Assembly: GCA_018818465.1 (NCBI GenBank)
Contig: JAHIRU010000074.1
Span: 1-35,146, forward strand
Length of the DNA: 35,146 nt
Direction: 5' to 3'
DNA from: Nanobdellota archaeon
Lineage (GTDB): Archaea > Aenigmatarchaeota > Aenigmatarchaeia > QMZP01
Below the pieces are notes generated by a model. It was not told the origin of the DNA and did no database searches. It saw only the letters and a program-made list of their open reading frames with translations. Position 1 is the first letter of the stretch; every line of letters begins with the position of its first letter. Positions 8,305 to 28,247 of the stretch are shown in pieces. The position numbers and the translations under genes were made by a program.

Positions 8305-9681
8305 CTATTTTTTCATCCATTTGCTGAAATTGAAAACAAATAATGGAAGCCTTATCAGCTGTTTTGCTGACATCATAGAAAGGACTGATTTAACAGCAAA
8401 CAGACGCATGTAAAAACTCCTGTAGGCCTTTCTTCTATACAGTTGTATTTGATTGCTTGAAAAGTTGGGATAGGAAACAGTTGCTGTCCCCTGTTCAACA
8501 CTTTTCCAATCATCTGACGAAAACCAGCCATTTTTCTTGGCATCTTCATAAAATTTGCTTCCAGGGAACGGGGTTGCTATATAAAATTGGGCAAAATTTA
8601 TTTTCAATTCCTTTGCAAAATTTATGGTATCCATTTCGGTTTTTTCATCAGAACCAGGCAATCCTATTATGAAATGGCCTATAATTTTTAGCCCATTGTC
8701 CCTGGCTGTTTTAGCGGCTTTTTTCGATTGCTCAATTGTTATACCTTTATTGTTCCTATTCAGAACATTTTGGTTGCCTGATTCAAAACCAAACGAAATC
8801 ATTTGGCAACCAGATTCCTTCATTTTTTTAGCCAATTCATCATCAAAACAATCTACTCTTGTTGTACAAAACCATTTTACTTTTTTACTTAAACCTTCTT
8901 TCACCATCAAATCACAGAATTTTTTCATGCGTTCCCTATCAAATGTAGCCAATTCATCCCACATCATCCAAACCTTTATTCCTATATCATTGACCAACCA
9001 TTTGAACTGTTCAACCATATATTCTGCTGAATGATATCTAACATTTCTTCCTGCCAGAAGTGGCATTACACAATAAGAACAATTAAACGGACATCCTCTT
9101 CCCGACCTGGCAAAAGTCCATTTTTCTCCCGTCAAAGGGAATCTATATTCTGGTAGAAGATCATATGCAGGAAAAGGCAACGAATCCAAATCAGGCTCTT
9201 GCCAGATACCGCCATCCCATGCTCTGGTAGCAACTCCTTTAACCTTATATTTGCCTTCCAATATGCTCATTACAGGTGTTTCAGCCTCTCCTAATACTGC
9301 GAAATCTATCTGTTTGTGTTTTTCGAGCAAATCTTTATACCTTGATGTTACGTGTTCTCCATACATTATTATTTTAGAACCTGTCAATTTTTTTATCTCA
9401 TCTGCGGTATTCACATCCATCTCTATTGTCGGAGTTGAGGTGTTTATAATCGAAAAATCAGGGCTAAAATTATTTACTATTTTCATACAATCTTCGAATG
9501 AAAGTTTTGAACCCATACAATCAATAAGTTTTAATTCATACTTTTCTCTAACACATCCAGCTATGCTCGCAAAGGCTGTGGGAGGAAACGTATCGAGCCA
9601 TGTATTTTCCTCACTCTGGCATCTTCCATCTCTACTAAATCTGAGGCCAAATGTGGGAGGGTTTAAAACTAAAACTTTCAT
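8305..9681 (-). CDS. B12-binding-domain radical SAM protein (subfamily B, rSAM-B1)
   Basis: 458 aa. N-terminus NPPTFGLRFSRDGRCQ, then INTSTPTIE, YGEHVT, CxxxCxxC = CPFNCSYC and FGFESGNQ. Its start overlaps the stop of the upstream GT-C gene in an ATGA (9678-9681), preceded by AGGTGAT. Confidence 0.9.
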   Translation of the reverse strand: MKVLVLNPPTFGLRFSRDGRCQSEENTWLDTFPPTAFASIAGCVREKYELKLIDCMGSKLSFEDCMKIVNNFSPDFSIINTSTPTIEMDVNTADEIKKLTGSKIIMYGEHVTSRYKDLLEKHKQIDFAVLGEAETPVMSILEGKYKVKGVATRAWDGGIWQEPDLDSLPFPAYDLLPEYRFPLTGEKWTFARSGRGCPFNCSYCVMPLLAGRNVRYHSAEYMVEQFKWLVNDIGIKVWMMWDELATFDRERMKKFCDLMVKEGLSKKVKWFCTTRVDCFDDELAKKMKESGCQMISFGFESGNQNVLNRNNKGITIEQSKKAAKTARDNGLKIIGHFIIGLPGSDEKTEMDTINFAKELKINFAQFYIATPFPGSKFYEDAKKNGWFSSDDWKSVEQGTATVSYPNFSSNQIQLYRRKAYRSFYMRLFAVKSVLSMMSAKQLIRLPLFVFNFSKWMKK

Positions 9682-11180
9682 TCTATCACCTGATTTTTAG
9701 TGTTAATATTTAAATTCAAACTCTTATAAATTATGAATATTTTTTGCCCATTTTGATAATTTTCATAAACGTTTTCAAACAAATCACTATTTTCTAATTG
9801 CGTAAAGATTGAAGATTGAAATTCGGTGTCAGGTGGAATTCTGTTGGATCGGTATTCGATTTGTATAGGCAATTTTATACCAAACAGTTCAGGATTGTAA
9901 TAATAGTGAACAGGGTGTCTGTCATATTCACCGTATATACTTATTATAACATAATCCACATCGTTATTCAGAATCCATTCCTCAACATTTTGTTCTATTT
10001 CTCCCCTTTCGATTTTACTTCCAGGAAAATCTACAACATTGAGATGGAACAATGAAAGATAGTAAGGCGATACTTCACTTGCTATGATAGCATCTTCTGG
10101 CAGATTTGAAACATAACCACTTGCAGGAATTCTTGCTAAATGATGATTTGAATCAAAAGATAATGTCCAAGCTGAAAACACAACACCGAATATAACAAAC
10201 AGAACAAAAACAATTTTTGTTATAATTTTGCTTTTTTCTTTTAACCAATCAATTCCTAGTGCTGCAATACATGAATATATTGGAAACATTGCAAACAAGA
10301 ATCTGTCCTCTTTAAAATTCAATACTTGAAAAACTGCAAAGAATACAAAGAATGTTATTAAAAGCAATTCGTTCTGCGGAGTTCTTTTTTTCCAGATTTT
10401 ATAAATTCCGAATAAGAAAAACACTGACCAAGGAATAGCCGCAAATCTTATGATATAATAAAAAATATTGGTTCCACTCACACCTGAAACAAAAAACAGG
10501 TGCTCTAAACCAGAACTTCCAGATAGAATATATACAACTAGAAAAACAGTCAGAAAGACAAACAGAAATGTTGATATCGACTCTAAGAATTCTTTTGTCT
10601 TTACTAAATTTAATTTTTTCTTAAATAACAGATAAATAAAGTAAACCGGTATCAATATTGCTCCAGTAAACTTTGTTAGCATTGCCAACGCAGTAGAAAT
10701 TCCAAGCAGTGTTGATTTTTTCTTTTTTTCTGTTAATTCAAAGAAAAACAATATTGATAATAAAACAAAAATCGTGAGTAAAGTTTCTACTAAAAGTCTT
10801 TCTGTCCATCTCCAGAAATAAGGAAGCGTTAACAGTATGATTGTTGATACGCATCCACTTCCGATCATTCTCTTTGAAAAAACAAAAGAAACTATTATCA
10901 GCGCTATTGTCAATATCAACGGTAAACCGAATATGATTGCATTAACGCTCGCACCTACTAAAAATGATAGTGAAATAAATAATGGTAAAAGAGGTCCTCT
11001 ATGAAAAACACCTAAAGAGTAATCTCCGTTTAGAATTTCATTACCAAGTGTAAGATATTGTTCTTGATCAGGATAAAAACTATTCCCAGGAAACATTACG
11101 ATATAGAAAATACTGGATAGTATACACACTGTTACCAAGAACTTAATATCGTTCTTTGAAAGGTCTTTTATGGCGTGCAT
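9678..11180 (-). CDS. GT-C fold membrane glycosyltransferase, ArnT/PMT_2 (GT39/GT83)-like (GT-C a)
   Basis: 500 aa. The first ~340 aa are polytopic. The first loop, after TM1, is acidic (FYPDQEQYLTLGNEILNGDY). It carries an ALAMLTKFTG motif ([AG]L[AG]xL[ST][KR], shared by all three paralogs) and a soluble C-terminal domain of ~150 aa. Confidence 0.65.
   Translation of the reverse strand: MHAIKDLSKNDIKFLVTVCILSSIFYIVMFPGNSFYPDQEQYLTLGNEILNGDYSLGVFHRGPLLPLFISLSFLVGASVNAIIFGLPLILTIALIIVSFVFSKRMIGSGCVSTIILLTLPYFWRWTERLLVETLLTIFVLLSILFFFELTEKKKKSTLLGISTALAMLTKFTGAILIPVYFIYLLFKKKLNLVKTKEFLESISTFLFVFLTVFLVVYILSGSSGLEHLFFVSGVSGTNIFYYIIRFAAIPWSVFFLFGIYKIWKKRTPQNELLLITFFVFFAVFQVLNFKEDRFLFAMFPIYSCIAALGIDWLKEKSKIITKIVFVLFVIFGVVFSAWTLSFDSNHHLARIPASGYVSNLPEDAIIASEVSPYYLSLFHLNVVDFPGSKIERGEIEQNVEEWILNNDVDYVIISIYGEYDRHPVHYYYNPELFGIKLPIQIEYRSNRIPPDTEFQSSIFTQLENSDLFENVYENYQNGQKIFIIYKSLNLNINTKNQVIE
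9685..9691 (-). promoter_or_regulatory. Shine-Dalgarno AGGTGAT for rSAM-B1, inside the 3' end of the GT-C a gene
   Basis: The minus strand reads AGGTGATAGAATGA, with the ATG and TGA overlapping. Confidence 0.5.
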
Positions 11181-11186
11181 ATGGAT

Positions 11187-12584
11187 TTATCGGAATACAC
11201 CTTTAAATATCTCAAAACCAGCCTTTATCGTCCATTTTAGTTCGTTTACAGATTTTATTGTAAATAATAGATCTAACATTTTTACTGGCCTGAGATAGAA
11301 ACTTCTGAAAGCCTCTCTTTCATAATAAATAACATCTTTCCTGTTAAGATTATGTAATTTGTAGTAAGTTTCTGCACTAAAAAACCCACCTTCAGAACCA
11401 GATGTTGTTGGTTTTATGAATTCACCATCCCTCTCTATCATCTGATAAAGTTCTGTTCCAGGAAAAGGTATTGTAACAGAGAAATTTGCTATATGAGGAT
11501 TCACATGCTTAGCAAAGCTTATAGTCTTTTCCACATCTTCTTTAGTTTCATACGGCAAACCTATCATGAAAAACCCGTAAGTTATAATCCCTTCTTCTCT
11601 AAACCATCTTATCGCTTGATTGACTTTTTTCAAGTCGAGAGACTTCTTTATAACATTTAATATTTTTTCATCACCAGATTCTATACCAATGCCAACTTTG
11701 AAAACACCTGCCCTTTTCATTTTTTTGACAAGATTCTTAGTTAATCTATCCGCTCTTACACCATTCTGTAAATTTATTTTTATGTCAATTTTTCGCTCTA
11801 TTATCATATCAAGAACTTTCTCAGCGTTTTCCATTATCAAAGTGAAATTATCATCAAGAATATCTATTTGTTTTACGCCATAATCATTAACTAGCATCTC
11901 TATTTCTTCGATTATGTTTTCTGCAGAACGATATCTGAAAACGCGACCAAAGATATTTTTATTACAAAATATACACCCATAAGGACATCCTCTGCTTGTT
12001 AGAATTGGTGACATAGGAACCTTTCTGGATCGAGATTGATACAATTTGAAGTCCGGGAGTAAATCATATGCAGGAAAAGGCAACGAGTCCAAGTCCTTTA
12101 TCAATTCCCTATTAGGATTGTGTTTTATTCTACCCCTATCCTTGAAACTTATGCTTTTCACTTTTGAAAGCGAGTTTAAGTTGTTCAAAAGATCCACTAT
12201 AGTTTCTTCACCCTCGCCTCTAACAACACATAAAGCATCAGAATCCTGTAAGGTTCTTTCTATCATAGAAGTTGCATAAGGTCCTCCTATAATAACTGGT
12301 TTTTTAAGCTCATTTTTAATTTTTTTTGAAAGCTCTACAGCAGCTCTTGCAAGAACAACGTTACTCATTATACCAACTACATCTGGATCGAATTTAGAAA
12401 GTTTTTTAAGAACTCTTTCATTTGTCATCCTGAGAATGTTAGCATCTATTATAATGCATTCTAATCCTCTCTTTCTTAGGACAGCTGCCATATACGCCAA
12501 ACCTATAGGTGGATATATTGTGGCAGTATTGATGCCCTTCGCATAATATGGAAACGGGTTTACAAAAGCAATTCTCATTTTCAT
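11187..12584 (-). CDS. B12-binding-domain radical SAM protein (subfamily A, rSAM-A2)
   Basis: 465 aa. Shows PIGLAYMAAVL, VVGIMS, IIGGPYAT, RGEGEETI, CxxxCxxC = CPYGCIFC and GIGIESGDE. Confidence 0.9.
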   Translation of the reverse strand: MKMRIAFVNPFPYYAKGINTATIYPPIGLAYMAAVLRKRGLECIIIDANILRMTNERVLKKLSKFDPDVVGIMSNVVLARAAVELSKKIKNELKKPVIIGGPYATSMIERTLQDSDALCVVRGEGEETIVDLLNNLNSLSKVKSISFKDRGRIKHNPNRELIKDLDSLPFPAYDLLPDFKLYQSRSRKVPMSPILTSRGCPYGCIFCNKNIFGRVFRYRSAENIIEEIEMLVNDYGVKQIDILDDNFTLIMENAEKVLDMIIERKIDIKINLQNGVRADRLTKNLVKKMKRAGVFKVGIGIESGDEKILNVIKKSLDLKKVNQAIRWFREEGIITYGFFMIGLPYETKEDVEKTISFAKHVNPHIANFSVTIPFPGTELYQMIERDGEFIKPTTSGSEGGFFSAETYYKLHNLNRKDVIYYEREAFRSFYLRPVKMLDLLFTIKSVNELKWTIKAGFEIFKGVFR

Positions 12585-12587
12585 AAT

Positions 12588-13259
12588 TTACCAAAGATTT
12601 TTGAATACTCTCCAAGCATAAACCCAACCCATTCTCCAAATATTTATTCCAGATTCACCATACAGTCTCTTTTTTTCTTGGCTCGAAACTTCTACAATTT
12701 TGTACCCTTTTTTGTAACATTTCATTACCATCTCGGTTTCTACATCAAATATATTTGCTTCAAGCTTTAGGTCTTTAGCTACATCGGTTTTTATAGCTCT
12801 GAAACCGTTTTGTGTGTCGCCTATGGCTGTACGAAATCTCCAATTTATTAATTGGGCAATAGAAATGCTAAGAAACATTCTCATAAATTTACCAAAATCT
12901 CCGTGAAGTTCTTCACTTCCTCCCATAAATCTTGATGCTATTACCATATCTGCATTACCACACTTTATGGGTTGCACTATTTTGGGTATGTCTTCTGGTA
13001 TATGAGATCCGTCTGCATCTATGAAAACTATTATATCCCCGCTGGCATGTTCAATTCCAACCCTTATGCCATCACCCTTTCCTTTACCGTTATCAACAAC
13101 TGTTCTAATGCCCATTTCCTCTGCTATTTCTTTTGTTCTGTCAGTTGATTTTTTCGCAGAAACGACCAATATTTCATCGCCATACGGCTTGACTTTTTCC
13201 AGAATATCCTTTATAGTTCTCTCTTCATTAAAGGTAGGAACAACAATAGACACTTTCAT
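12588..13259 (-). CDS. GT2-family glycosyltransferase, soluble dolichyl/polyprenyl-phosphate sugar synthase-like (GT2 a)
   Basis: 223 aa. Shows VSIVVPTFNEE, a DxD-type FIDADGSH motif and a GT-A fold pattern. No TM segment. Confidence 0.8.
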   Translation of the reverse strand: MKVSIVVPTFNEERTIKDILEKVKPYGDEILVVSAKKSTDRTKEIAEEMGIRTVVDNGKGKGDGIRVGIEHASGDIIVFIDADGSHIPEDIPKIVQPIKCGNADMVIASRFMGGSEELHGDFGKFMRMFLSISIAQLINWRFRTAIGDTQNGFRAIKTDVAKDLKLEANIFDVETEMVMKCYKKGYKIVEVSSQEKKRLYGESGINIWRMGWVYAWRVFKNLW

Positions 13260-13292: not shown

Positions 13293-14246
13293 TTAAATTT
13301 TTGGCTTAACAGGGGTTTTTATCCAAAAAAACAACCCTATTGGCACTGTAATCCAATAACCAAAAACAAGGTAAACAAGCGAAAAACTTATTATCATTCC
13401 TTTTGACATACCAACTAATGGCAAGACAAGCAACAAGAACGTTTCCCTAGTGCCTATGCCTGATACAGAAACAGGTATAAGCTCAATTATTACCATAACG
13501 CTTATGACAGCGAAAATAAATAAATAATTGAACGATATACCAAACGCTAACCCAAAGAATAGGGCCAGCATTATAGAAAACAACCAAATAAAAATATTAA
13601 ATAGAGTTATAGTAAAAAGATTCCTTTTTTTATTTTTTAGTTCTCCAAAAACATCATAGAACCCATAAAAATCCAGCTTTAACTTTTCTTTATATTTGCC
13701 TGGTACAAACAAATTGAATAATGGTTTTAGCAATTTCCTCATGGAATTCTTTCTTGTGAATATGTAAAAACCAACAAAAAAGGCGGCAACAAATCCCAAA
13801 ATCAATCCAAACGATATGATTGTATACCCAAACCATACATTCAGCAGGATGACCCCTATCAGGGCAGAACATAATACAACAGCCAGATCTATTATTCTAT
13901 CAGCAATAACTACGGATAATCTCTTTCCGAATGGTTGCAAATCATCCAGATAAAAAACTTTTATAAAATCTCCAACTCTTCCAGGCGTAATTAATCCTGT
14001 GAATAAACCAATTGACCATATTTTGAAACAATTAAACATACTTTCATCAAAACCGTGTGCATTAATTACCATTTTGAATTTTATTGCCCTCAAAAAGAGA
14101 ATGAAAAAGGCAGAGCCAATGCCTAACAATAAAAAGAAAATATTAATTTGTTGGAAAGATGCTATTATTTTGTCGATTCCAATATTCCAGACAATGTATG
14201 CAAATAAAGCAACACCTATAACAGGCATGTAATTTAAAATTTTCAT
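13293..14246 (-). CDS. UPF0104 / MprF-type flippase-like domain membrane protein (a)
   Basis: 317 aa and polytopic. It carries the two hallmark pseudo-repeat motifs of the family: ITPGRVGDFIK (P-x-x-x-G-[DE]) and IPVSVSGIGTRE (P-x-x-G-x-G-x-x-E). Confidence 0.7.
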   Translation of the reverse strand: MKILNYMPVIGVALFAYIVWNIGIDKIIASFQQINIFFLLLGIGSAFFILFLRAIKFKMVINAHGFDESMFNCFKIWSIGLFTGLITPGRVGDFIKVFYLDDLQPFGKRLSVVIADRIIDLAVVLCSALIGVILLNVWFGYTIISFGLILGFVAAFFVGFYIFTRKNSMRKLLKPLFNLFVPGKYKEKLKLDFYGFYDVFGELKNKKRNLFTITLFNIFIWLFSIMLALFFGLAFGISFNYLFIFAVISVMVIIELIPVSVSGIGTRETFLLLVLPLVGMSKGMIISFSLVYLVFGYWITVPIGLFFWIKTPVKPKI

Positions 14247-14263
14247 ATAAATAAACTGTATTC

Positions 14264-14273
14264 ATTTAAATAA
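14264..14273 (-). promoter_or_regulatory. TATA-like box ~22 nt upstream of the UPF0104 a ATG (start of the 14246->8305 operon)
   Basis: The minus strand reads ttatttaaat. No SD. Confidence 0.3.
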
Positions 14274-14418
14274 GAATTCCATTGATCTTATATGCTGTTT
14301 GCCTATGACTGGTGATCGAACCAATTATTTAAAAACACACTTATAATTACTTAGCATAAGAGGTTATGTACGTAAATGTGGAAAAAAATCAAAGAAATTG
14401 ATGATATCATACACGAGC

Positions 14419-14427
14419 AATATAAAA
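14419..14427 (+). promoter_or_regulatory. TATA-like box ~27 nt upstream of the GT2 b ATG (start of the GT2-CE4-rSAM operon)
   Basis: aatataaaa, with ATG at 14450. Confidence 0.35.
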
Positions 14428-14449
14428 CTTAAAATAGGGAAGTGCCATT

Positions 14450-15391
14450 ATGTATCGAAATAAAAAAATAAGTGTCGCAATGCCGGCATATAATGAAGAA
14501 AAATTAATAGAGAAAGCTATTAAATCCATCCCTGATTTTGTAGATAAATTAATAGTAGTTGATGATGATTCAAAAGACAATACATTTTCTATAGCAAAAA
14601 AATACGAGGGCAAAAGAGTTACAGTAATAAAACATACAAAAAATCAGGGTGTTGGCGGAGCCATAATAACCGGTTTCAAAGAGGCTTTGAAAGAAAAAGC
14701 AGATATAGCTGTTGTAATGGCAGGAGACGCCCAAATGGATCCAAACGATTTACCAAATATATTAGATCCTATAGTAAATAATGTTGTTGACTGCACGAAA
14801 GGGAACAGGTTCCTTCACCCAGAAATTTACAAAAAAATGCCAAAATTCAGATTGTTTGGCAATAGAATTTTAACAATACTGACAAAGATATCGTCCGGAT
14901 ACTATCACATATCTGATCCGCAGAATGGATATGTTGCAGTTTCAAGAAATGTTTTAGAAACAATTGATTGGGGCATGGTTGATAAAAGATTTAGTTTTGA
15001 AAACGATATGTTGATTCATCTCAACGTAAATAATTTTTCAGTGAAAAACATAAAAACAAATCCTATATATGGCGAAGAAAAATCCAAGATAAAAATTCAT
15101 AGTTTTGCACTAAAACTTAGTTTTCTCCTAATAAAAAAGTTTTTCTGGAGAATAAAAGAAAAATATTTTGTAAGAGATTTTCATCCAACATTTATATTTT
15201 TTATAGCAGGTTTCATTATGCTTTTTTTCGGTTTGATTTGGAGCTTGCTTGTTTTGAGGGCAAGATTCATCACGCCTGATATAACATGCGGATCAGTTGT
15301 TCTTTCCGCTTTATTATTGATTTGTGGTTCACAATCAATTTTCACAGGATTCATCCTTGACATGTATGAAAGTAAAACATTAAAAACATAG
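14450..15391 (+). CDS. GT2-family polyprenyl-phosphate glycosyltransferase with two C-terminal TM helices (ArnC/GtrB-like; GT2 b)
   Basis: 313 aa. Shows ISVAMPAYNEE, VVDDDSKD, AGDAQMD, and C-terminal helices FIFFIAGFIMLFFGLIWSLLVL and GSVVLSALLLICGSQSIFTGFIL. Confidence 0.85.
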   Translation: MYRNKKISVAMPAYNEEKLIEKAIKSIPDFVDKLIVVDDDSKDNTFSIAKKYEGKRVTVIKHTKNQGVGGAIITGFKEALKEKADIAVVMAGDAQMDPNDLPNILDPIVNNVVDCTKGNRFLHPEIYKKMPKFRLFGNRILTILTKISSGYYHISDPQNGYVAVSRNVLETIDWGMVDKRFSFENDMLIHLNVNNFSVKNIKTNPIYGEEKSKIKIHSFALKLSFLLIKKFFWRIKEKYFVRDFHPTFIFFIAGFIMLFFGLIWSLLVLRARFITPDITCGSVVLSALLLICGSQSIFTGFILDMYESKTLKT

Positions 15392-15399
15392 TGATAAAA

Positions 15400-16650
15400 A
15401 TGCAAAATAAAACGTTATCTAAGGTTGATTTGATCAGAAATGAACTGGATTTGGAATATAAACAATCCATAATTTTAAAGTACACGTTACTATTGGGTTT
15501 AAGAGAAAAAATACCGCCAAGTATAAGAAACAGGGTTGGATTTTCGTTTGAAAAATTAAAAAATCCAAAAAGAGATTTTCCAATAGACAGAAAAGTACAA
15601 ACACTGGAATACGAAGCTATGAAAAAAAATGTTTCAGAAAAAAAATATCATCTAATGATTAAACCATGGACAACATTCTCGGCATGCTTCACACATGATG
15701 TGGATACATTTTATGATTTAAAGGAAGGAATATCAATCCTCAGAAAAATCGAGAAAAAACATGACATAAAATCAACATGGAATTTTGTTCCAGAGTCAAA
15801 AGAATATAAAATAGATAAAGAACTTTTAAAATCACTTGAAAGAGACGGCCATGAAATAGCATCACATAGTTTAAAGCATGATGGAAAATTCGCTTTTTTG
15901 AGCAAACATGAAAGAAGATTAAGAGTTAGAAAATCAAAGGAAATTTTCAAAAAAATGGGATTCAATATCAATGGTTTCAGGGCGCCCTGGTTACATAGAA
16001 CAAGGGATTTAATATTATTTCTGGAAGAAAATAAATATCTTTGGGATTCTTCATTTCCAGACACTGACAACACAACGATTGGTTACAGAGGAACGGGCTG
16101 TTCTACAGTTTTTCCTTTTCAACCTTTAATCAAAGAAAACAAAGGCTATAGAAAATCAAGCATAATAGAACTGCCTATAACAGTCCCACAGGACTGGAGC
16201 TTAATACACCCAATGAAATTATCAAATGAAAAAATATTATCTTTATGGATTGAGAAGGTTGATTATATAGAAGATGTTGGAGGTCTTGCTCTTTTTTTGA
16301 CACATCCAGCAAAATATGATATCGGGAACAATGAAAGATCATGGATTTACGATGATATTATAAAATATATAAAAAACAAGAAACCATTCATTGGCAGATG
16401 TATTGATGTAGCAGAGAGATGGAAGGCAACCAACGATATTCAGTATAATCTGGATATAAAAAAAATGAACTTGCATATGAAGTCTGAAAGAAGAATAAAG
16501 AATCTAGCCTTCTATATATTTTCACCCAAAAATGAAAAATTGAAGAGCAACGACTGCGAACTTCTGAAATCTGACATTTTTTTCAACAAAAAAAGGTCTC
16601 TATTTTTGGTAAAAAGCCTTGATAGAGAAATGAACATGCACTTCCACTAA
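15400..16650 (+). CDS. polysaccharide deacetylase (NodB homology, CE4) with N- and C-terminal extensions
   Basis: CE4 motifs occur in order: FTHDVDT (Asp-Asp), HSLKHD (H-S-x-x-H) and FRAPW (RxPY-like). The track begins at a GTG at 15391, which overlaps the upstream stop. ATG at 15400, preceded by AGTGAT, is the alternative I list. Confidence 0.8.
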   Translation: MQNKTLSKVDLIRNELDLEYKQSIILKYTLLLGLREKIPPSIRNRVGFSFEKLKNPKRDFPIDRKVQTLEYEAMKKNVSEKKYHLMIKPWTTFSACFTHDVDTFYDLKEGISILRKIEKKHDIKSTWNFVPESKEYKIDKELLKSLERDGHEIASHSLKHDGKFAFLSKHERRLRVRKSKEIFKKMGFNINGFRAPWLHRTRDLILFLEENKYLWDSSFPDTDNTTIGYRGTGCSTVFPFQPLIKENKGYRKSSIIELPITVPQDWSLIHPMKLSNEKILSLWIEKVDYIEDVGGLALFLTHPAKYDIGNNERSWIYDDIIKYIKNKKPFIGRCIDVAERWKATNDIQYNLDIKKMNLHMKSERRIKNLAFYIFSPKNEKLKSNDCELLKSDIFFNKKRSLFLVKSLDREMNMHFH

Positions 16651-16651
16651 A

Positions 16652-16660
16652 CATTTAAAG
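16652..16660 (+). promoter_or_regulatory. TATA-like box ~25 nt upstream of the rSAM-A3 ATG (possible internal promoter)
   Basis: catttaaag sits in the 30-nt gap after the CE4 stop. No SD. Confidence 0.3.
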
Positions 16661-16680
16661 ATTTTCTTTTAACTTAAACT

Positions 16681-18192
16681 ATGAAATTTGAATTCATCAG
16701 ACCACCTTATACATATTTTGGCATGCTGGTATCGCCAAGAATAGACATACCGCTTGGACTTTTATACATAGCTACCAAATTGGACAAAATGGGTTATGAA
16801 GTTAAAATATTCGATGCTTTAATAGAGAACCCAAAGATATCCAGATACGGAAATATCATACATTTTGGAGAATCATGGGAAAACGTTAAAAAAGAGATAG
16901 AGAGAACCAGACCGGATATTGTTGGCATAACAAACCAGTTCACACAACAAATAAGGAGCAGCATACAATTAGCAAAAATTATCAAGGAAGTTGATAAAAA
17001 CATAACAGTAGTTGTTGGTGGAAACCACCCATCAGTCCTACCAAATGATTTTTTGAACAGAACAGAAGACATTGATATAATAGTTATGGGTGAGGGCGAG
17101 GAAACATTCCCTGAAATAATAGAATATAAAAACGGCAATAAAAAACTAAAAGACATAAAAGGAATAGCTTACAGGGAAAAGGGAAAAATAAAAATTAACG
17201 AAAGAAGAGAATTTATAAAAAATCTGGATGAAATTTCAATACCATCATACCATTTAATAGACATAGAAAAATATTTTGCAGCAGTTAAAGAAGGGTTTTC
17301 GACAAGACCAGACCAATACACAGAATCAGAGAGACAGGTTTCAGTAATAACAAGCAGAGGATGTCCATTCAATTGTGTTTTCTGTTCAATTCACTGCCAT
17401 ATGGGAAAAGTTTGGAGATCACATTCACCTGAATATGTTTTAAAACATTTAGAGATTCTGACAAAAAAATATAATGTGAAACATATTCATTTTGAAGATG
17501 ACAACCTAACTCTTGACCCCAAAAGATTTGAATCAATTTTAGACGGAATAAAAAAGAGGAACATAAAAATAACATGGGACACACCGAACGGTGTAAGGCT
17601 CGATACATTGAATAAGAAGCTTATAGAGAAAATGAAAGAGTCAGGATGTCGCCAGTTAAAAATAGCAATAGAATCAGGTGATCAAAAAACACTTGATGAA
17701 ATAATTGATAAAAAACTTGATTTAAAAAAAGCAGTTGAAATAGCAAAAATATGCAGAGAACTCAAATTACCATTAAGCTCATTCTATATAATAGGTTTTC
17801 CGTATGAAACCAGGGAATCAATAGAGAAGACATTGAATTTCGCATTTACTTTGAAGAAAAAATATAAAGTCAGACCTCACGTGAGTATAGCCATACCTAT
17901 GATGGGAACAAGGCTGCATGATATTTGCGAGAAGAACGGATATATATTGAAAAAGGCATTTGATAGCGACAGTGTTATAAATGTTTTTGGTGAGGGTGTT
18001 ATAAAAACAGAAGAATTTTCCCCAGACGATCTCCAAAGATATATCCATAAATTCTACCAAAAAATACTATTGACCTATATAGAGGACATGATATGCGAGC
18101 CTTCCATTTTTTTAGGAATGTTGAAAAGATTTTTCAAAAACCCAAAGTCAACATTAAATGTAATAAAAGCAGGGACTAGCTACCTAAAATAG
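16681..18192 (+). CDS. B12-binding-domain radical SAM protein (subfamily A, rSAM-A3)
   Basis: 503 aa. Shows PLGLLYIATKL, IVGITN, VVGGNHPS, MGEGEETF, CxxxCxxC = CPFNCVFC and IAIESGDQ. Confidence 0.9.
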   Translation: MKFEFIRPPYTYFGMLVSPRIDIPLGLLYIATKLDKMGYEVKIFDALIENPKISRYGNIIHFGESWENVKKEIERTRPDIVGITNQFTQQIRSSIQLAKIIKEVDKNITVVVGGNHPSVLPNDFLNRTEDIDIIVMGEGEETFPEIIEYKNGNKKLKDIKGIAYREKGKIKINERREFIKNLDEISIPSYHLIDIEKYFAAVKEGFSTRPDQYTESERQVSVITSRGCPFNCVFCSIHCHMGKVWRSHSPEYVLKHLEILTKKYNVKHIHFEDDNLTLDPKRFESILDGIKKRNIKITWDTPNGVRLDTLNKKLIEKMKESGCRQLKIAIESGDQKTLDEIIDKKLDLKKAVEIAKICRELKLPLSSFYIIGFPYETRESIEKTLNFAFTLKKKYKVRPHVSIAIPMMGTRLHDICEKNGYILKKAFDSDSVINVFGEGVIKTEEFSPDDLQRYIHKFYQKILLTYIEDMICEPSIFLGMLKRFFKNPKSTLNVIKAGTSYLK

Positions 18193-18200
18193 CTATAAAT

Positions 18201-19091
18201 TTACTTTTTGGTAGCCTTTGAATTGTCTATTTTAATAGATTTATAAAATACAACAAATCCCACTATTATCATAATGCCAAGCATTAGTGCATAAAGAAGC
18301 GGTATCAAGAGAGCGATTCCGATATTGGTTATCGCACCCTGAAGCAAAAAACCCATACTGAATTCTCTTGTTCCCCAGCCACCAGGAAGGTATGAAATGA
18401 TACCTGCCAATAATGATACGCCTAAAATATTTGAGGCCTGTACGAAACCTATATTCACATCAAGTGAATAAATTATAAACATTAAACTAAACACAATTCC
18501 AATTTTATGCACAATTGAAAGTAAAACAATTTTGATGATTCCAAATTTATTATTTACAATTTTTTTGTACATCGAGTAAGTTGCAATGATTGAGGTCAAT
18601 AACAGAAAAAAACACAGCATTATTATGTTTGTGGCGAATGCAAAGACAGCGAGTATAGCAACATCCAGTATCCTTTCAGATAACGGAACTATCAAACATT
18701 TTTTTCTCGAGCATCCTGTTTTGTTTCTTATAAATTCTATTTTTGAAAATTCCCCTAAATTTGCTGGCGTTACATGACCAAGAGAATTTGCAGAAAACAA
18801 AATCTTAAGAGAGTCCTTGAATGATATGTTACTATTAGTAACGATTTTAACCATTATCTGGAGTCGCTTTCCTACTATCAAGGCAACACCGAATGAGAAA
18901 ATTATAGCAAAAATGAAAAGCGGAAGATTTATTCTGTAAAAATATTTTCCAATTTCATCGAAATTAACATACAGCATCCAACCATAAGTAGCAATAACGA
19001 AGAGTGTCAATACCGATATCAAAATCTTCAGAACAACTCTGATTTTTCTATTTTCATAAAACGATTTTAGATAATCTAAATCTAAATGCAT
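18201..19091 (-). CDS. UPF0104 / MprF-type flippase-like domain membrane protein (b)
   Basis: 296 aa and polytopic. Motifs VTPANLGEFSK and LPGGWGTRE. Confidence 0.7.
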   Translation of the reverse strand: MHLDLDYLKSFYENRKIRVVLKILISVLTLFVIATYGWMLYVNFDEIGKYFYRINLPLFIFAIIFSFGVALIVGKRLQIMVKIVTNSNISFKDSLKILFSANSLGHVTPANLGEFSKIEFIRNKTGCSRKKCLIVPLSERILDVAILAVFAFATNIIMLCFFLLLTSIIATYSMYKKIVNNKFGIIKIVLLSIVHKIGIVFSLMFIIYSLDVNIGFVQASNILGVSLLAGIISYLPGGWGTREFSMGFLLQGAITNIGIALLIPLLYALMLGIMIIVGFVVFYKSIKIDNSKATKK

Positions 19092-19130: not shown

Positions 19131-20423
19131 TTATTTGAGTTGCTTTATCAGCTTGTTAACAGTAGAAAATGCAGATTTTGCGCAGGCCTCTAACCCAGAA
19201 TCTATTATCGGTGTTGTTGGGAGATAATATCCTGCAAGACCGAATCCCTTGATCGGAGTTCTTTCTATTTCTTCGGACCAGTATTCTTTGGGTTGTATAG
19301 GATTTGCATATTTGCATTCGATAAAACGTTTCCAAACAACATCCTTCTCAAATCCCCTGAAAAGCGTTTCAAGTTTTTCTATGCTATCTCTGTCATATCT
19401 TTCTTTGTTCAATTTAGAGTCTTCTGGTATGTAGTTATCAATACAAAAAAGCTCAACATCTTTTGGCACTATGTTGTATGTATAATAAGTGGTTCTTGTT
19501 AGCCTCTTGAATGTAAAATCTGAAGGGAAGAATGTGCAATAATTCATTTTCCATCTTTCCTTTTTCTTAACTGCATAGTAACCGATAGCACTCTTCTTGT
19601 AACTTATGTTTTTTATTGGTTTTGAAATGAGTTGCCAAATTTCCGGTGAAACTGTTTTCAGAGAAGAAGGAGGTATTGTTGATATAACAGCATCAAATAT
19701 TTTCTTTTTATCTTCATCTTTTTTATCAGTATTTGTGTATACAGAGAATTTTTCATTTCTCATTGTTATTTCAGAGACATCCACACCTTTAACGAATTTG
19801 ACATCATTTTTTTCCAATCCTCGAGAAACATTTTCTGTTATGGCGCCGAAACCTCCAACAGAAGGATATCCGTATAATTTTCCAGTCTTTGTCATACCAG
19901 CAAGTCTTGTTGCAACCCAAGAAGCAGGCACATTTTTCATTGATGATATCTTCCATTCGGTAATAGGTGAAAAAACATCTTTGTATAACTCTTCACCAAA
20001 ACTCCTCTTTAACCATGATTCTGCATCTTCATCTTTCCAGCTCTTCATATTAAGCGCTGATTTTAGATAAAACCTTGCAAGCGATGGTGTTTTCCTTCCC
20101 ATTTTAACAGCCATTTTCACCAAACCAGGAAAATCAAATGTATAAATACTGCCTTTATACCATAAGGAATTTTTAATCCTTTTACGTATAATCGACATTT
20201 CAGGTGCCATATCATTTAAAATAGAAATAGTTTTTTCTGCGTCAAGCCCTATTATATGCGGACCAAAATCAAGCGTGTAGGCATCAAACTCTTCACTTCC
20301 GGCTACCCCACCAATCTTATTATCCTTTTCAATAACAGTTACTTTAAATCCACTTTTATTTAGATAGTAGGCGCATGCTATTCCAGAAAATCCAGATCCC
20401 AAAACCGCTACTTCCATATCCAT
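19131..20423 (-). CDS. FAD/NAD(P)-binding oxidoreductase (amine oxidase / PPOX / UGM-like fold)
   Basis: 430 aa. The N-terminal dinucleotide fold is VAVLGSGFSGIACAYYL...VTVIEKDNKIGG, followed by FGPHII and YGYPSVGGFG, with a C-terminal GLAGYY...DSGLEA. Confidence 0.75.
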   Translation of the reverse strand: MDMEVAVLGSGFSGIACAYYLNKSGFKVTVIEKDNKIGGVAGSEEFDAYTLDFGPHIIGLDAEKTISILNDMAPEMSIIRKRIKNSLWYKGSIYTFDFPGLVKMAVKMGRKTPSLARFYLKSALNMKSWKDEDAESWLKRSFGEELYKDVFSPITEWKISSMKNVPASWVATRLAGMTKTGKLYGYPSVGGFGAITENVSRGLEKNDVKFVKGVDVSEITMRNEKFSVYTNTDKKDEDKKKIFDAVISTIPPSSLKTVSPEIWQLISKPIKNISYKKSAIGYYAVKKKERWKMNYCTFFPSDFTFKRLTRTTYYTYNIVPKDVELFCIDNYIPEDSKLNKERYDRDSIEKLETLFRGFEKDVVWKRFIECKYANPIQPKEYWSEEIERTPIKGFGLAGYYLPTTPIIDSGLEACAKSAFSTVNKLIKQLK

Positions 20424-20434
20424 AACCTTAAAAC

Positions 20435-21856
20435 TTAAAACGCATTATGTTTCAGGAAATTAGCTCCTGCAACAAACCACCTGAAGAACTGCTCTGGTGA
20501 TTTTATTTTTTTTAAGACGGAAAAAACATAACTCGGTTTTAAATAAAAACTCCTGTATGCATTCCTTATTAGTTTGTTTAATTCTTCTGTACTCAACTCT
20601 TCTGTTCTGAGAACAGATGTATAACCACCGCAAGCGTATTTGTTCCATTCGGTCGATGTTATCATATTTTTTCCATTAACAATGTCATATAATTCTGTTC
20701 CAGGATATGGTATTAGTGGATTGAATGTAGCAAAATCAGGATTTAATTCCTTAGCAAAATCCACTGTTTTTTTGAAAGTTTCTTTAGTTTCTCCTGGAAG
20801 GCCGCAGAGAAAAGAGGTTATTACATTTATTCCAGAATCCTTTATCATTCTAACAGAATCCCTTATCATAGGTATTGTTGTCCCTTTTTTTGCAACATCC
20901 AATAATTCCTGAACACCGCTTTCAATCCCTATACTCAAACCAACACAACCACTCTTTTTCATTAATTTTAGCATTTCCATATCAATTGTTCCTGCTCTGG
21001 AATTTGCAAACCATTTTATATCTATTTTTCTGTCAATTAAGCCCTTGCACAATTCCATCACAAAATCGCGTTTTAAAGTGAAAGTATCTGCCCAAAAGGT
21101 TACTGCCTTGAAACCATTTTTAACAACTTCGAATTCAATCTCATCCAAAACACTCTTAGGGCTCCTGAATCTACTTTGGTCTCCATAGTATATTCTCGCA
21201 ACACAGAAAATACATTGAAACGGGCAGCCTCTGGCAGTTTGCACAAGGGTGTGCCTTCTGTTCAAGTAAAAATCATAATAAAGATTGTTTGGCAGAAGGT
21301 GTCTGGCTGGCCATGGAAGAGAATCAAGGTCTTCAATCCATTCCCTTGTCTTATTAACATATATTTTAGAGTCTTTTTGTGCTGAAGTTCCTTTCACTTT
21401 TAAGAAATTTTTACTGTCTCTAATAGCCTGGCAAAGTTCCAGCGCTGTCATTTCAGGTTCACCCCTTATAACAACATCTAGTGCTGGATTCGATTTCAAA
21501 ATCTCATTATGAAGGACAGTTAAATGTGTTCCAAAAGCAGCTATGATTGTTGCCGGGCTCATTATTTTGATTTTTTTTATGGTTTCCATATCACTGTCTA
21601 TAGAAACAGTTGATGTGTTCATTATTATTATGTCATAACCCACTGAAACGATATTTAGAAGTTCATCCACAGACATGCCTGTTGCTACACCATCTATGAG
21701 TTTTGGTTTAAAGCCACTCTGTTCAAGAATACCGCCTATACAAGCAAGACTCAATTGCGGATAATTGAAACCTTTCCACCAATCACCAGGATTTTGGCAT
21801 CTACCTTCTCTTGCCGTAAGCGTTTCTGAGGGTGGATTTAACAATAATATTTTCAT
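20435..21856 (-). CDS. B12-binding-domain radical SAM protein (subfamily B, rSAM-B2)
   Basis: 473 aa. Shows NPPSETLTAREGRCQ, MNTSTVSID, FGTHLT, CxxxCxxC = CPFQCIFC and IGIESGVQ. Confidence 0.9.
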   Translation of the reverse strand: MKILLLNPPSETLTAREGRCQNPGDWWKGFNYPQLSLACIGGILEQSGFKPKLIDGVATGMSVDELLNIVSVGYDIIIMNTSTVSIDSDMETIKKIKIMSPATIIAAFGTHLTVLHNEILKSNPALDVVIRGEPEMTALELCQAIRDSKNFLKVKGTSAQKDSKIYVNKTREWIEDLDSLPWPARHLLPNNLYYDFYLNRRHTLVQTARGCPFQCIFCVARIYYGDQSRFRSPKSVLDEIEFEVVKNGFKAVTFWADTFTLKRDFVMELCKGLIDRKIDIKWFANSRAGTIDMEMLKLMKKSGCVGLSIGIESGVQELLDVAKKGTTIPMIRDSVRMIKDSGINVITSFLCGLPGETKETFKKTVDFAKELNPDFATFNPLIPYPGTELYDIVNGKNMITSTEWNKYACGGYTSVLRTEELSTEELNKLIRNAYRSFYLKPSYVFSVLKKIKSPEQFFRWFVAGANFLKHNAF

Positions 21857-21860
21857 ATCA

Positions 21861-22901
21861 TTATCCTGTATGCCTTAATAAATAAGGTCCCAATCTCTTT
21901 GATATAAAGATTGGAAACATTTTCCACAGCATTATCATTGATTTGAACTTCGGACTTGTTGAATCAATTAAAGGCAACTCATGAATTTTATTTAAATAAT
22001 AATAGTAAGGCACTTTTATATTCTTTGTTCCCCACCTTGATTTAAATAACAACAAGTTTTTGTGTTCAGGAGGAGTTATGCCAAAATCAAAAACATCAAA
22101 ACCGTTATTTTTAGACCACTTTATAGCATTCCACAGCAAGAGATTATTTGGCTGCAGATTCAGGTACCTCCTTTTCGATGCTGCATATGCATATATAACT
22201 TCTTTTTTGTAAAACAATAAAACTAAACCAGCTATACAAATATCATCCTTATATGCCAAGTAAAGTTTTGAATTTGAACCTAAATTTTTGTAAATATTCT
22301 CAAACAATGAAAACGAGTAAGCAGGCAATCCCTGATGTTTTCTTGTTTCTAAGAGAATCTTATAGAATTTCTTGTAATCTTCTATATTTTTACCTTCAAC
22401 TACATTAACACCATTTTTTTCTGCCTTTTTGATCCCCCATCTAACACTACTTTTATCAAAATTTTTCCACAGGATATCAAGAGAATCTTTTAAATAGAGA
22501 AAAGAGCATATGTAGTGAGGACACTCTTTCAATCCGTTAAGTTTTATGTTAGGCCTTTCTTTTATTTCCAAATAATCTAAGCCACGATCATCAACAATCT
22601 TTTTTGCAAAATCAACAAGCCCACTAACAGTGACATTACCGCCCAAAACACCAACAGAATGTGAATAAGGAAGTGAAACCGTCCTTTTACCAAAGAAAAT
22701 ACTTCTAACCTCAAACATTGGAAGAATCCCGTTTATTTTTTTATCATTGCCCTTCGCCATTATATAGAAAGGTTTGTACTTGTAGGTTTTTTCAATTACA
22801 TTTTTCCATTCCACTGTGTGATACAGGTTTGACTCTGAATGATTTTCAACAAAGTTTTTCCACTCATTCTCATTTTCTTTACTTAAAATTTCAACTTTCA
22901 T
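21861..22901 (-). CDS. FemAB-like / Acetyltransf_6 (GNAT-fold) aminoacyl- or acyl-transferase
   Basis: 346 aa. Shows NLYHTVEWKNVIEKTY and the FemX-like C-terminal pattern YAYAASKRRYLNLQPNNLLLWNAIKWSKNNGFDVFDFGITPP...LLLFKSRWG. A GGAGGA SD lies 6 nt upstream of its ATG, inside the preceding gene. Confidence 0.72.
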   Translation of the reverse strand: MKVEILSKENENEWKNFVENHSESNLYHTVEWKNVIEKTYKYKPFYIMAKGNDKKINGILPMFEVRSIFFGKRTVSLPYSHSVGVLGGNVTVSGLVDFAKKIVDDRGLDYLEIKERPNIKLNGLKECPHYICSFLYLKDSLDILWKNFDKSSVRWGIKKAEKNGVNVVEGKNIEDYKKFYKILLETRKHQGLPAYSFSLFENIYKNLGSNSKLYLAYKDDICIAGLVLLFYKKEVIYAYAASKRRYLNLQPNNLLLWNAIKWSKNNGFDVFDFGITPPEHKNLLLFKSRWGTKNIKVPYYYYLNKIHELPLIDSTSPKFKSMIMLWKMFPIFISKRLGPYLLRHTG

Positions 22902-24048: not shown

Positions 24049-24053
24049 ACCTC
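24049..24053 (-). promoter_or_regulatory. Shine-Dalgarno GAGGT for the second DegT gene
   Basis: The minus strand reads TAGAGGTTATATG. The stop of rSAM-B3 overlaps the SD. Confidence 0.4.
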
Positions 24054-25450
24054 TAAAGATTTTTAAACAAACCTATCCCATTTTTAATATCCTCCCAAAC
24101 ATTTCTGAGAGATTTCCATGTTTTTATTCGTTTGAAAAAATATCGTGGTCTAATGTAAAATTTTCTGTACGAATTATGAAATGTTGACCAGACAACATTT
24201 CTAGGGAGCCATGGTGTTTCAAAAACAGGATAAAGAGTTGGTTCATACTTACTAAAGTCGTGTGTAATTATCCAGCCATTTTTTTTGCAAATTTCATACA
24301 AATCTGTTCCTGGAAACGGCGTACATATATTGAATGAGGCAAAATCAGGATCTAACTCTATCACAAGTTTTATTGTTTCATCCATTGTTTCTTTGGTCTC
24401 ACCAGGATAACCTAAAACACAATGTGCAAGTGTTTCAATACCAACTTCCTTTGTCTCCTTGAACACTTTCTTCATTTGAGAAATCGTTGTATTTTTCTTA
24501 CTTTCGTCCAATATCCTTTGATTTCCAAACTCAACACCAAGGAGGACTGTGTGGCAGCCGGCTTCTTTCATTTTCTTTAAAAGTTCTTTATCTATTTTAT
24601 CCACTCTTGAAGAGCATGCCCATGAAATATTCATTCTGTTTTTTATCATTTCATCACAGATTTTGATTGCCCTGTCTCTAAAAAGCGTAAACGTATCATC
24701 CCAAAATATAATCTCCTTCATGTTCATTTCAAAACAGAGATGTTTCAATTCTTCCATCAAGTTCTCAACACTTCTCATCCTGAATGGAAACATCTTTGTA
24801 GTACAAAAAACACAGGAGTATGGGCATCCAATAGACGTTAATGTAGCAGTTAGCGGATAGAATCTAGCATAAGGAACATGATAATGTCTTAAATCAACAG
24901 CATCATGTGCAGGATAAATCTCCAACGATTTTCTTTTTATATCACTTCCTTTCTCAATTTTATTACCATTTCTATAATATGTATTGGGTATGTCCTTTAT
25001 TTTTCCCTCAAAAAAATCAATAACATCAATTATACTTTCCCATGAATCACCCCGTATTATAAAGTCTATCTCTTTATAATCTTTCAGTATATCTTCTGGT
25101 ATTGCAGATGCATGAGTTCCTATCAGACCAATCTTAACATCTGCTAATATATTCTTAAAAATTTTCGCAATATCAGTATCATTATAGAATGTTGGGGTCG
25201 ATGTTAAGAGGAGCAACATATCAGGACTGTAGTCTTTAATCTGTTTTTTCATCCCATTGATATCAGTTTGCCATGCATTGAAGTCGAATATCTTGAATTG
25301 ATGTTTTGTTTTTTTCAATGCTCCGCCAACCATCATAAGGTCTATTGGCGGCCAGGCATAATCGGCCTTTGATCTAACGTTTGCACCTTTGTCCTTTATG
25401 TACACATCCTTACTTCCTATCTGGGACGGATTCACTAGAGATATTTTCAT
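24053..25450 (-). CDS. B12-binding-domain radical SAM protein (subfamily B, rSAM-B3)
   Basis: 465 aa. Shows LLLTSTPTFYND, IGTHAS, CxxxCxxC = CPYSCVFC and LGVEFGNQ. The N-terminus reads NPSQ... and lacks the GRCQ seen in B1 and B2. Confidence 0.88.
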   Translation of the reverse strand: MKISLVNPSQIGSKDVYIKDKGANVRSKADYAWPPIDLMMVGGALKKTKHQFKIFDFNAWQTDINGMKKQIKDYSPDMLLLLTSTPTFYNDTDIAKIFKNILADVKIGLIGTHASAIPEDILKDYKEIDFIIRGDSWESIIDVIDFFEGKIKDIPNTYYRNGNKIEKGSDIKRKSLEIYPAHDAVDLRHYHVPYARFYPLTATLTSIGCPYSCVFCTTKMFPFRMRSVENLMEELKHLCFEMNMKEIIFWDDTFTLFRDRAIKICDEMIKNRMNISWACSSRVDKIDKELLKKMKEAGCHTVLLGVEFGNQRILDESKKNTTISQMKKVFKETKEVGIETLAHCVLGYPGETKETMDETIKLVIELDPDFASFNICTPFPGTDLYEICKKNGWIITHDFSKYEPTLYPVFETPWLPRNVVWSTFHNSYRKFYIRPRYFFKRIKTWKSLRNVWEDIKNGIGLFKNL

Positions 25451-28228: not shown

Positions 28229-28247
28229 TAAGCTATTAATTAAAGTG

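Follow-up and report, generated by a model that had tools for sequence, protein, structure and literature searches.

In hopanoid synthesis, HpnI, HpnK, and the radical S-adenosylmethionine (SAM) enzyme HpnJ act in this order, and calditol is the product of another radical SAM enzyme, Cds (PMC13459092). A bacterial exopolysaccharide (EPS) locus needed for biofilm lists a PEP-CTERM deacetylase beside a FemAB-related gene, plus asparagine synthases (PMC3684757). Here, we analyzed contig JAHIRU010000074.1, a stretch of 35,146 nucleotides that we call the window. It is AT-rich (GC ~33%) and its proteins match a metagenome-assembled genome (MAG) of a "Nanoarchaeota archaeon" (DPANN), with 99% identity for P0001. 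We focused on three genes lying head to tail and in the same direction at 14450-18192 (+), which encode a GT2 glycosyltransferase (GT2a), a predicted CE4-type deacetylase (hereafter CE4), and a B12-binding radical SAM enzyme (rSAM-A3). An initial annotation of this DNA, whose account of the hopanoid order and of radical SAM calditol synthesis agrees with the publication cited above, had proposed that the three genes follow the HpnI/HpnK/HpnJ logic of carbocycle formation.

Our analysis drew on sequence, predicted structure, and gene neighborhood. It leads us to propose, with middling confidence, that GT2a and CE4 would take part in an ArnC/ArnD-like swap of the N-acyl group of a lipid-linked sugar, and that rSAM-A3 would catalyze a separate glycan-tailoring step.

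A conserved glycosyltransferase and deacetylase pair

GT2a has the features of the polyprenyl-phosphate sugar synthases, i.e., a GT-A GT2 domain, a C-terminal transmembrane (TM) hairpin, and sequence similarity to these enzymes. The hydropathy profile has two hydrophobic segments, both C-terminal (~residues 243-303), which together with the PF00535 match bear out the membrane-anchored GT2 described initially. The best NCBIfam models, all far below cutoff, are AglJ, PpgS, and the Dol-P-hexose transferase, and the AglJ alignment places residues 7-306 of GT2a on positions 2-282 of the 293 in the model. The top match in the PDB is the Dol-P-Man synthase (DPMS) of Pyrococcus furiosus (5mlz, 1e-18). 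From its sequence, GT2a is a putative synthase of polyprenyl-phosphate (dolichyl-P) sugars.

CE4 scores above the thresholds of both PF01522 (30.8 bits, cutoff 23.1) and PF10096/DUF2334 (28.2 bits, cutoff 26). Its predicted NodB fold and its putative catalytic motifs (Asp base, Asp-His-His metal triad, RxP, and C-terminal His) are also those of PF01522 members. The three NodB motifs noticed in the initial annotation, FTHDVDT (residues 100-106), HSLKH (159-163), and RAPW (197-200), can be read in its sequence and coincide with invariant positions of the family: T101, H102, D103, H159, H163, R197, P199, and H305 are invariant in an alignment of 22 sequences (A1), and D105 is near-invariant in another one of 12 sequences (A2). 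Across the family the invariants read THD.D, H..xH-D, RxP, DTD, QD, and HP, and motif 1 follows the D-x-D(T) pattern of ArnD instead of the DD form. We found no signal peptide, TM helix, or any other hydrophobic segment in the hydropathy profile of CE4, and the enzyme is for this reason expected to be cytoplasmic. A secreted polysaccharide deacetylase, which the initial annotation had named as an outcome contrary to its proposal, is ruled out on the same grounds.

The AlphaFold2 (AF2) model of CE4 (pLDDT 81) has the NodB fold and Foldseek matches it to CE4 structures, among them 3rxz, HP0310, PuuE, and ArnD 8t0j, with E values down to 3e-12; the closest folds are those of the HP0310/PuuE/MSMEG subgroup. 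The alignment of the family profile with ArnD of E. coli by hhalign covers 211 columns (92.4% probability, E of 5e-7) and sets THDVDT on RIDVDT, with the HxxxH (His-x3-His) motifs also aligned. The best NCBIfam match is TIGR03006, at 31.8 bits for a cutoff of 276.2, and the bacterial members of the clade likewise miss this model. Judged by these scores, the CE4 clade is separate from TIGR03006 and lacks a curated family model. The window protein carries a C-terminal extension of ~75 residues (~346-419; 16426-16650) missing from its closest homologs (~345 aa); a beta-rich structure is predicted for it with low confidence, and an alignable extension occurs in some distant relatives (P0054, P0058-P0086).

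A protein search gave 280 homologs of CE4 (E<=1e-3), and contigs from one genome per species gave at least 567 confirmed stretches of the clade. A metagenome scan yielded 9 loci, few of them new, as most duplicate L001-3 or are of the Thorarchaeota type. We then recorded the genes resembling those of the window within 10 kb of CE4 in the 80 best genome loci. A FemAB-like gene is found in 50 of them, mostly directly upstream on the same strand and at a median distance of ~400 nt. DegT genes are near CE4 in 37 loci, hexapeptide-repeat (LbH) acyltransferases in 34, and AsnB-like and GT4 genes in 18 each. The FemAB-like partners are full-length relatives of TIGR03019 that stay under its threshold (116-150 bits in bacteria and 199.3 in the window, for a cutoff of 260.35), and the FemAB-like protein of the window is 42-44% identical to the one encoded beside CE4 in L001 and L098. 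In Thorarchaeota, an LbH protein is encoded directly upstream of CE4 in 8 out of 8 loci. The CE4 ortholog of these Asgard archaea (L004/L005 and L009-L016, 37-42% identity) lies among housekeeping genes, with no surrounding glycan cluster.

GT2a and CE4 have linked orthologs (37-56% identity) in five additional independent loci (L001, L098, L099, L100, and L018). In L001-3 and L089-90 (CE4 56%, GT2a 49%), they are accompanied by a FemAB-like gene (42%), a B-type rSAM, PHP, ATP-grasp, and flippase-like genes. L098 (CE4 55%, GT2a 49%) has flippase-like, LbH, DegT (48%), and FemAB-like (44%) genes, all of them, including GT2a, convergent with CE4, and no rSAM. In L099 (CE4 48%, GT2a 47%), the order is B-type rSAM, GT2a, CE4, and the last two overlap by 8 nt. 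L100 (CE4 41%, GT2a 38%) has Alg14/Alg13-like, PMT_2, ATP-grasp, and STT3 genes, again with no rSAM. Finally, the bacterial locus L018, from Desulfotomaculum, has adjacent GT2a (43%) and CE4 (37%) genes in the order LbH, DegT, GFO, GT2a, CE4, sugar dehydrogenase, FemAB-like (37%).

Among the closest relatives of CE4 (at least 41% identity, Thorarchaeota excluded), GT2a is present in every independent locus, and the two genes are directly coupled twice, in L099 and in the window (TAGTG overlap or 8-nt gap). Because the linkage recurs in five independent loci, the adjacency exceeds what is expected by chance, and GT2a-CE4 is a conserved pair. Its recurrent third partner is an amine-acylating enzyme, which is FemAB-like or otherwise LbH or ATP-grasp. 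An rSAM gene is an occasional neighbor of the pair, and in the other loci it is never of the rSAM-A3 type. We therefore rejected a conserved GT2-CE4-rSAM triad: a B12-rSAM is near CE4 in 2 of the 80 distant loci, it is of the B type in L001 and L099 and missing in L098 and L100, and the orthologs of rSAM-A3 occur without CE4.

rSAM-A3 and its relatives

The sequence and the model of rSAM-A3 fit class B of the radical SAM enzymes, with an N-terminal B12-binding domain, a radical SAM core, and the CxxxCxxC motif (C228-x3-C232-x2-C235, CPFNCVFC), whose three Cys are invariant in the family; cobalamin binding is predicted. Its NCBIfam matches are all below cutoff, the best being NF038361 (Sden_1168 P-methyltransferase family, 224.6 of 575 bits), and we found nothing in the literature on "Sden_1168" nor on B12-rSAMs in DPANN or glycan contexts. 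The six paralogs of the window share merely 27-35% identity and none reaches the cutoff of any curated family. Since six of the ~30 genes of the window are B12-rSAMs, the adjacency of rSAM-A3 to the pair is by itself uninformative: under random placement, the chance of an rSAM beside GT2-CE4 is ~0.27, i.e., 1 - (24/28 x 23/27).

The succession of a glycosyltransferase, a deacetylase, and a B12-type rSAM does fit that of HpnI, HpnK, and HpnJ (PMC13459092). It would imply, in a manner akin to hopanoid or calditol synthesis, that a lipid-linked GlcNAc is deacetylated and then ring-contracted by rSAM-A3 into an aminocyclitol head group. Over the core, rSAM-A3 shows homology to HpnJ (28% identity, hhalign E of 5e-41), the ring-contracting B12-rSAM OxsB is among its structural neighbors, and a PF03706 flippase-like gene is adjacent here as one also adjoins hpnI in Paraburkholderia. 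However, scoring on the HpnJ model TIGR03471, a check proposed with the initial annotation, leaves rSAM-A3 at 182.3 bits and the other five paralogs at 187-263, all under the cutoff of 577.6, and the best model of rSAM-A3 is another family. As references we used the proteins of a genuine hpn locus on a Paraburkholderia megaplasmid, which consists of hpnJ-hpnI-(PF03706 gene). In BLASTP searches, this HpnJ fits rSAM-A3 the worst of the six paralogs (28% identity, 121 bits), and the nearest one, at 20435-21856 (31%, 189 bits), is equally far from HpnJ (~30%), BchE (~28-29%), and unnamed rSAMs.

The other Hpn components fare no better. Two genuine HpnI proteins have no BLASTP match at E<0.01 among all window proteins, no HpnI model is among the NCBIfam matches of GT2a, and the PF03706 protein of the Hpn locus (HpnL-like) has no BLAST match in the window. 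CE4, with its PF01522 and PF10096 matches and its NodB/CE4 fold, has no match to HpnK/YdjC in the Pfam and NCBIfam scans, in agreement with the caveat given at the outset that HpnK is not a CE4 enzyme. The 30 open reading frames (ORFs) of the window include no shc, hpnH, hpnI, or hpnK, and no hopanoid or lipid-core genes. The NCBIfam scores and the comparison with the Paraburkholderia proteins rule out membership in HpnJ, HpnI, or HpnL, and beyond the shared class-B radical SAM core, sequence comparison leaves no specific homology to the Hpn system, which for HpnJ is essentially one of the outcomes that the initial annotation had listed as contrary to its proposal. In addition, rSAM-A3 has orthologs in seven loci without CE4, the partners of CE4 are amine-acylating enzymes, and contraction at a phosphate-linked anomeric carbon would probably destroy the very donor that the flippase-like and GT-C genes imply. 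An Hpn- or calditol-like ring contraction is thus very improbable. That rSAM-A3 is an HpnJ-type ring-contracting enzyme is not supported, nor is a link to carbocyclic lipid head groups, and the carbocycle logic that headed the initial annotation fails in all of these comparisons.

Another precedent is found in aminoglycosides, where a glycosyltransferase is followed by the N-acetylparomamine deacetylase and then by AprD4, a dehydratase with the same domain, whose substrate is a glucosamine ring bearing a free amine. By analogy, rSAM-A3 might dehydrate a vicinal diol after transfer and de-N-acetylation of the sugar, which would result in a deoxy amino sugar. In PDB searches with rSAM-A3, the top match is AprD4 (6fd2), both by sequence (7e-16) and by structure (Foldseek E of 2e-22, TM 0.74-0.76), and AprD4 also comes first for a B-type paralog (6e-29). 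Yet the superfamily is sparsely covered in the PDB and a best match means little. The AF2 model of rSAM-A3 (pLDDT 87) matches AprD4, OxsB, MgmA, CysS, TsrM, and TokK about equally, and because methylase, dehydratase, and ring-contraction folds are equally good matches, the type of reaction is unreadable from the structure. The AprD4 model NF033070 gives 93.3 bits for rSAM-A3 and 79-136 for the paralogs, with a cutoff of 500, no AprD3-like reductase is evident beside rSAM-A3, and here too the occurrence of rSAM-A3 orthologs without CE4 counts against the idea. We consider such a dehydration improbable.

The family of rSAM-A3 has more than 2667 homologs at E<1e-30, with 44-53% identity across Bathyarchaeota, Aenigmarchaeota, Patescibacteria, Omnitrophica, and Deltaproteobacteria. 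None of the seven ortholog loci contains a CE4 or an ortholog of GT2a. In two archaeal MAGs (L007, 5536-8488, and L103, 229-3148), the ortholog (46-49%) is divergent from STT3/AglB, which points to a role in the synthesis of protein N-glycans. L006 and L104 have an operon of rSAM, DegT, LbH, GFO, GT2, a polytopic membrane protein, and GT2, which adjoins Wzx, GT2, and GT4 genes. In L008 (Bathyarchaeales), the ortholog is one of four side-by-side rSAM paralogs found with surface proteins, and in L102 it has no obvious glycan context. The family tracks N-glycosylation and surface-glycan loci rather than the GT2a-CE4 module.

Layout of the window

The three genes look like a compact co-directional unit within a 35-kb cluster of the surface-glycan/N-glycosylation type in a DPANN genome (Table 1). 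Their junctions can be read directly in the sequence and are as first annotated: the TAG stop of GT2a ends at 15391 and overlaps the GTG start of CE4 (TAGTG), the alternative ATG at 15400 lies 8 nt past this stop, and the CE4 stop, which ends at 16650, is separated by 30 nt from the ATG of rSAM-A3 at 16681. The public annotation (P0001, 416 aa) starts CE4 at the ATG. The unit is limited on its 3' side by a convergent gene that ends 8 nt past rSAM-A3. A scan for sigma-70 promoters and terminators was uninformative, the host being an archaeon.

Table 1. Main features of the window, with coordinates, strand, and supporting matches
Feature	Coordinates	Strand	Evidence and remarks
GT2a, DPMS/AglJ/ArnC-type GT2 (313 aa)	14450..15391	+	PF00535 6e-27; two C-terminal TM helices
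CE4/DUF2334-type de-N-acylase (predicted), cytoplasmic	15391 (GTG) or 15400 (ATG)..16650	+	PF01522 + PF10096
rSAM-A3, two-domain B12-binding radical SAM (503 aa)	16681..18192	+	PF02310 76.7 bits and PF04055 92.5 bits, both above cutoff
B12-binding radical SAM	312-1709	+
B12-binding radical SAM	8305-9681	-
B12-binding radical SAM	11187-12584	-
B12-binding radical SAM	20435-21856	-
B12-binding radical SAM	24053-25450	-
Divergent intergenic region (203 nt)	14247..14449	.	AT-rich, TATA-like stretches 5' of 14450; between the flippase-like/GT2b operon (-) and the GT2a-CE4-rSAM unit (+)
Flippase-like membrane protein, candidate flippase for lipid-linked sugar	13293..14246	-	PF03706 1.6e-36; TIGR00374 96.6 bits, above cutoff; HpnL 27.4 of 195.65 bits; divergent from GT2a
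Second flippase-like membrane protein	18201..19091	-	PF03706 1.3e-22; TIGR00374 54 bits; convergent with rSAM-A3
Third flippase-like protein	29587-30504		PF03706/TIGR00374
GT2b, DPM1-like GT2	12588-13259	-
Further DPM1-like GT2	34083-34949
GT-C (PMT_2/Alg9-like) polytopic glycosyltransferase	9678..11180	-	PF13231 + PF03901; multi-TM profile
Second GT-C (PMT_2)	25520-27262	-	PF13231; multi-TM profile
Third GT-C (PMT_2)	28245-29576	+	PF13231; multi-TM profile
FemAB-like GNAT-fold (aminoacyl)transferase	21861..22901	-	PF02388 + PF13480; TIGR03019 199.3 bits, full length (cutoff 260.35)
Asparagine-synthase-type amidotransferase (AsnB-like)	32311-34086	+	PF00733 1e-107
Asp/Glu racemase within the glycan cluster	6327-7016	-	PF01177 5e-34
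FAD amine-oxidase/phytoene-desaturase-like oxidoreductase	19131-20423	-	PRK07233 143 bits; UDP-galactopyranose mutase weakly; between flippase-like gene and rSAM

DPM1-like GT2s, PF03706/TIGR00374 flippase-like proteins, and GT-C enzymes (the predicted users of polyprenyl-P-sugar donors) each occur exactly three times in the window. This suggests three parallel three-component glycosylation systems. The operon on the (-) strand, from 14246 down to 9678, consists of flippase-like, GT2b, rSAM, and GT-C genes, and is a second case of a GT2 adjoining an rSAM. Further genes encode Wzx, an epimerase, two DegT, an LbH, two GT4, and two methyltransferases. The presence of a racemase and of a FemAB-like transferase is a hint that a sugar may carry a D-amino acid. 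An ORF of 95 aa at 1762-2049 (+) matches the phage anti-restriction domain DarA_N below its threshold (23.3 bits, cutoff 27), probably by chance.

Proposed pathway and relation to known systems

In the pathway that we propose, GT2a would use a nucleotide donor to load an N-acetylated amino sugar onto dolichyl or polyprenyl phosphate on the cytoplasmic face of the membrane, as suggested by its DPMS/AglJ/ArnC-type homology and its TM hairpin. The soluble, cytoplasmic CE4 would then strip the N-acyl group, as ArnD does on Und-P-Ara4FN; the fold, the conserved metal and catalytic motifs, and the synteny argue for this step. The co-occurrence of genes suggests that the FemAB-like transferase, or an LbH or ATP-grasp enzyme in other lineages, would re-acylate the free amine, with a swap of the N-acyl group as the net result. 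Finally, given the three sets of GT2, flippase-like, and GT-C genes, a PF03706 flippase-like protein might flip the donor, and a GT-C enzyme transfer the sugar to a glycan or protein outside. rSAM-A3 would serve this glycan pathway as a tailoring enzyme of the cobalamin radical SAM type, and not as an obligate third step of the GT2a-CE4 module. We lean towards C-methylation as its chemistry, with deoxygenation next. Of the operon first imagined, the loading of an N-acyl amino sugar by GT2 and the unmasking of the amine by CE4 are retained, on homology and synteny, and the radical ring-forming step is not. The passing remark on ArnC/ArnD made there provides the best analogy, in view of the type of GT2, the cytoplasmic CE4, its alignment with ArnD, and the conservation of the pair.

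Several points weigh against this pathway. GT2a is below every equivalog cutoff (84.6 of 325 bits for AglJ, 63.2 of 370 for PpgS). Its DXD site reads GD[AGN]QMDP in all orthologs (residues ~92-96, alignment A4) and GDAQ in the window, with Gln for the second acidic residue, whereas GT2b, GT2c, and ArnC keep the canonical DAD(G/L). With such scores and GDAQ instead of DAD, the donor, the acceptor, and even the type of activity of GT2a are uncertain. No ArnD family model of NCBIfam matched CE4, and ArnD of Salmonella (8t0j) is merely the seventh fold match in Foldseek (E of 9e-10). The FemAB-like gene of the window is 5 kb away and on the opposite strand. As for rSAM-A3, its top matches AprD4 and OxsB are not methylases, and neither sequence nor structure can separate methylation, dehydration, and ring contraction. 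Also, B-type B12-rSAMs accompany the GT2a-CE4 module in L001 and L099, and may have some functional link to it.

The last objection concerns the substrate: GT2a is near CE4 in 1 of the 80 census loci and most bacterial CE4-FemAB pairs are without it, so that CE4 could act on a nucleotide sugar or on a lipid-PP-oligosaccharide. CE4 and the acyltransferase would then modify one of these molecules, e.g., the UDP-diacetamido sugars made by DegT, LbH, and GFO enzymes; GT2a would simply use the product or have its role elsewhere, and rSAM-A3 would have no part in it. The 79 of 80 distant loci without GT2a have FemAB-like, DegT, LbH, and AsnB genes, as is typical where nucleotide sugars are tailored, the pair of L018 is embedded among WbpA/B/D/E-like genes, and CE4 is soluble. 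Yet the loci of the closest relatives of CE4, Thorarchaeota aside, all carry GT2a, directly coupled in the window and in L099, and ArnD, which has the DVDT motif in common with CE4 and is its closest mechanistic precedent, has a polyprenyl-P sugar as its substrate. We regard a soluble or oligosaccharide substrate as rather unlikely, though a serious alternative, and retain the swap on a lipid-linked monosaccharide.

A bolder version of the lipid-linked swap, which we find doubtful, is that the B12-rSAMs would act on polyprenyl-P-monosaccharides before flipping and GT-C transfer (rSAM-A3 after GT2a-CE4, and the paralog at 11187-12584 after GT2b), with GT2a-CE4-FemAB building an N-aminoacyl amino sugar. 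This would amount to radical tailoring of lipid-linked donors by C-methylation, deoxygenation, or rearrangement, which to our knowledge has not been described for any three-component glycosylation system. If the N-acyl swap itself holds, the CE4/DUF2334 clade would be a general device for exchanging the acyl groups of surface amino sugars in bacteria and archaea. In its archaeal branch, the coupling to a Dol-P-sugar synthase would bring ArnC/ArnD-type chemistry on lipid-linked sugars to archaeal glycans. The repeated presence of the rSAM-A3 family beside AglB/STT3 and in Wzx-type loci points to radical chemistry in archaeal glycan synthesis.

The locus resembles several known systems and differs from each. 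It shares with the Hpn system the order of enzyme types, a nearby PF03706 membrane protein, and a class-B rSAM core, but the three proteins all fall outside the Hpn families, the fold of the deacetylase differs from that of HpnK, there is no hopanoid context, and the triad is not conserved. AprD4, OxsB, MgmA, TokK, CysS, and TsrM have the two-domain architecture of rSAM-A3 and are its best neighbors in structure and sequence, although the identity is merely 15-22% and no family threshold is reached. The XrtA/PEP-CTERM EPS loci (TIGR03006 + TIGR03019) also have a CE4 beside a FemAB-like gene, with a putative function as a pair, and asparagine-synthase homologs; here, in contrast, both proteins are sub-threshold (31.8 of 276.2 bits for CE4, 199.3 of 260.35 for the FemAB-like) and there is no exosortase. 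The three-component systems (GtrA/GtrB/GtrV, AglJ/AglD, and the mycobacterial PpgS/Rv3779) have the combination of DPM1-like GT2, flippase, and GT-C that is found here in three copies of each, and PpgS and AglJ are among the best matches of GT2a. However, the flippase-like proteins of the window are of the PF03706 type and not GtrA, and CE4 and B12-rSAM genes are interleaved with those of the GT2s. In ArnC/ArnD/ArnE-F/ArnT, which makes the Ara4N of lipid A in E. coli and Salmonella, one also finds a GT2 with C-terminal TM helices, a cytoplasmic de-acylase of the CE4 fold, a flippase, and a GT-C, and the ArnC sequence matches the GT2s of the window. The differences are that the window proteins reach neither the ArnD nor the ArnC family models, that the acyl group is presumably acetyl instead of formyl, that the amine is probably re-acylated and not kept free, that the candidate flippase is of the PF03706 type instead of ArnE/F, and that the product would be an archaeal glycan and not lipid A. 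Hence, an ArnC/ArnD-like pair and a deacetylase/FemAB-like pair are both of known kinds, and they are found here in an uncharacterized clade, in an archaeal setting, and together with unusually many B12-rSAMs.

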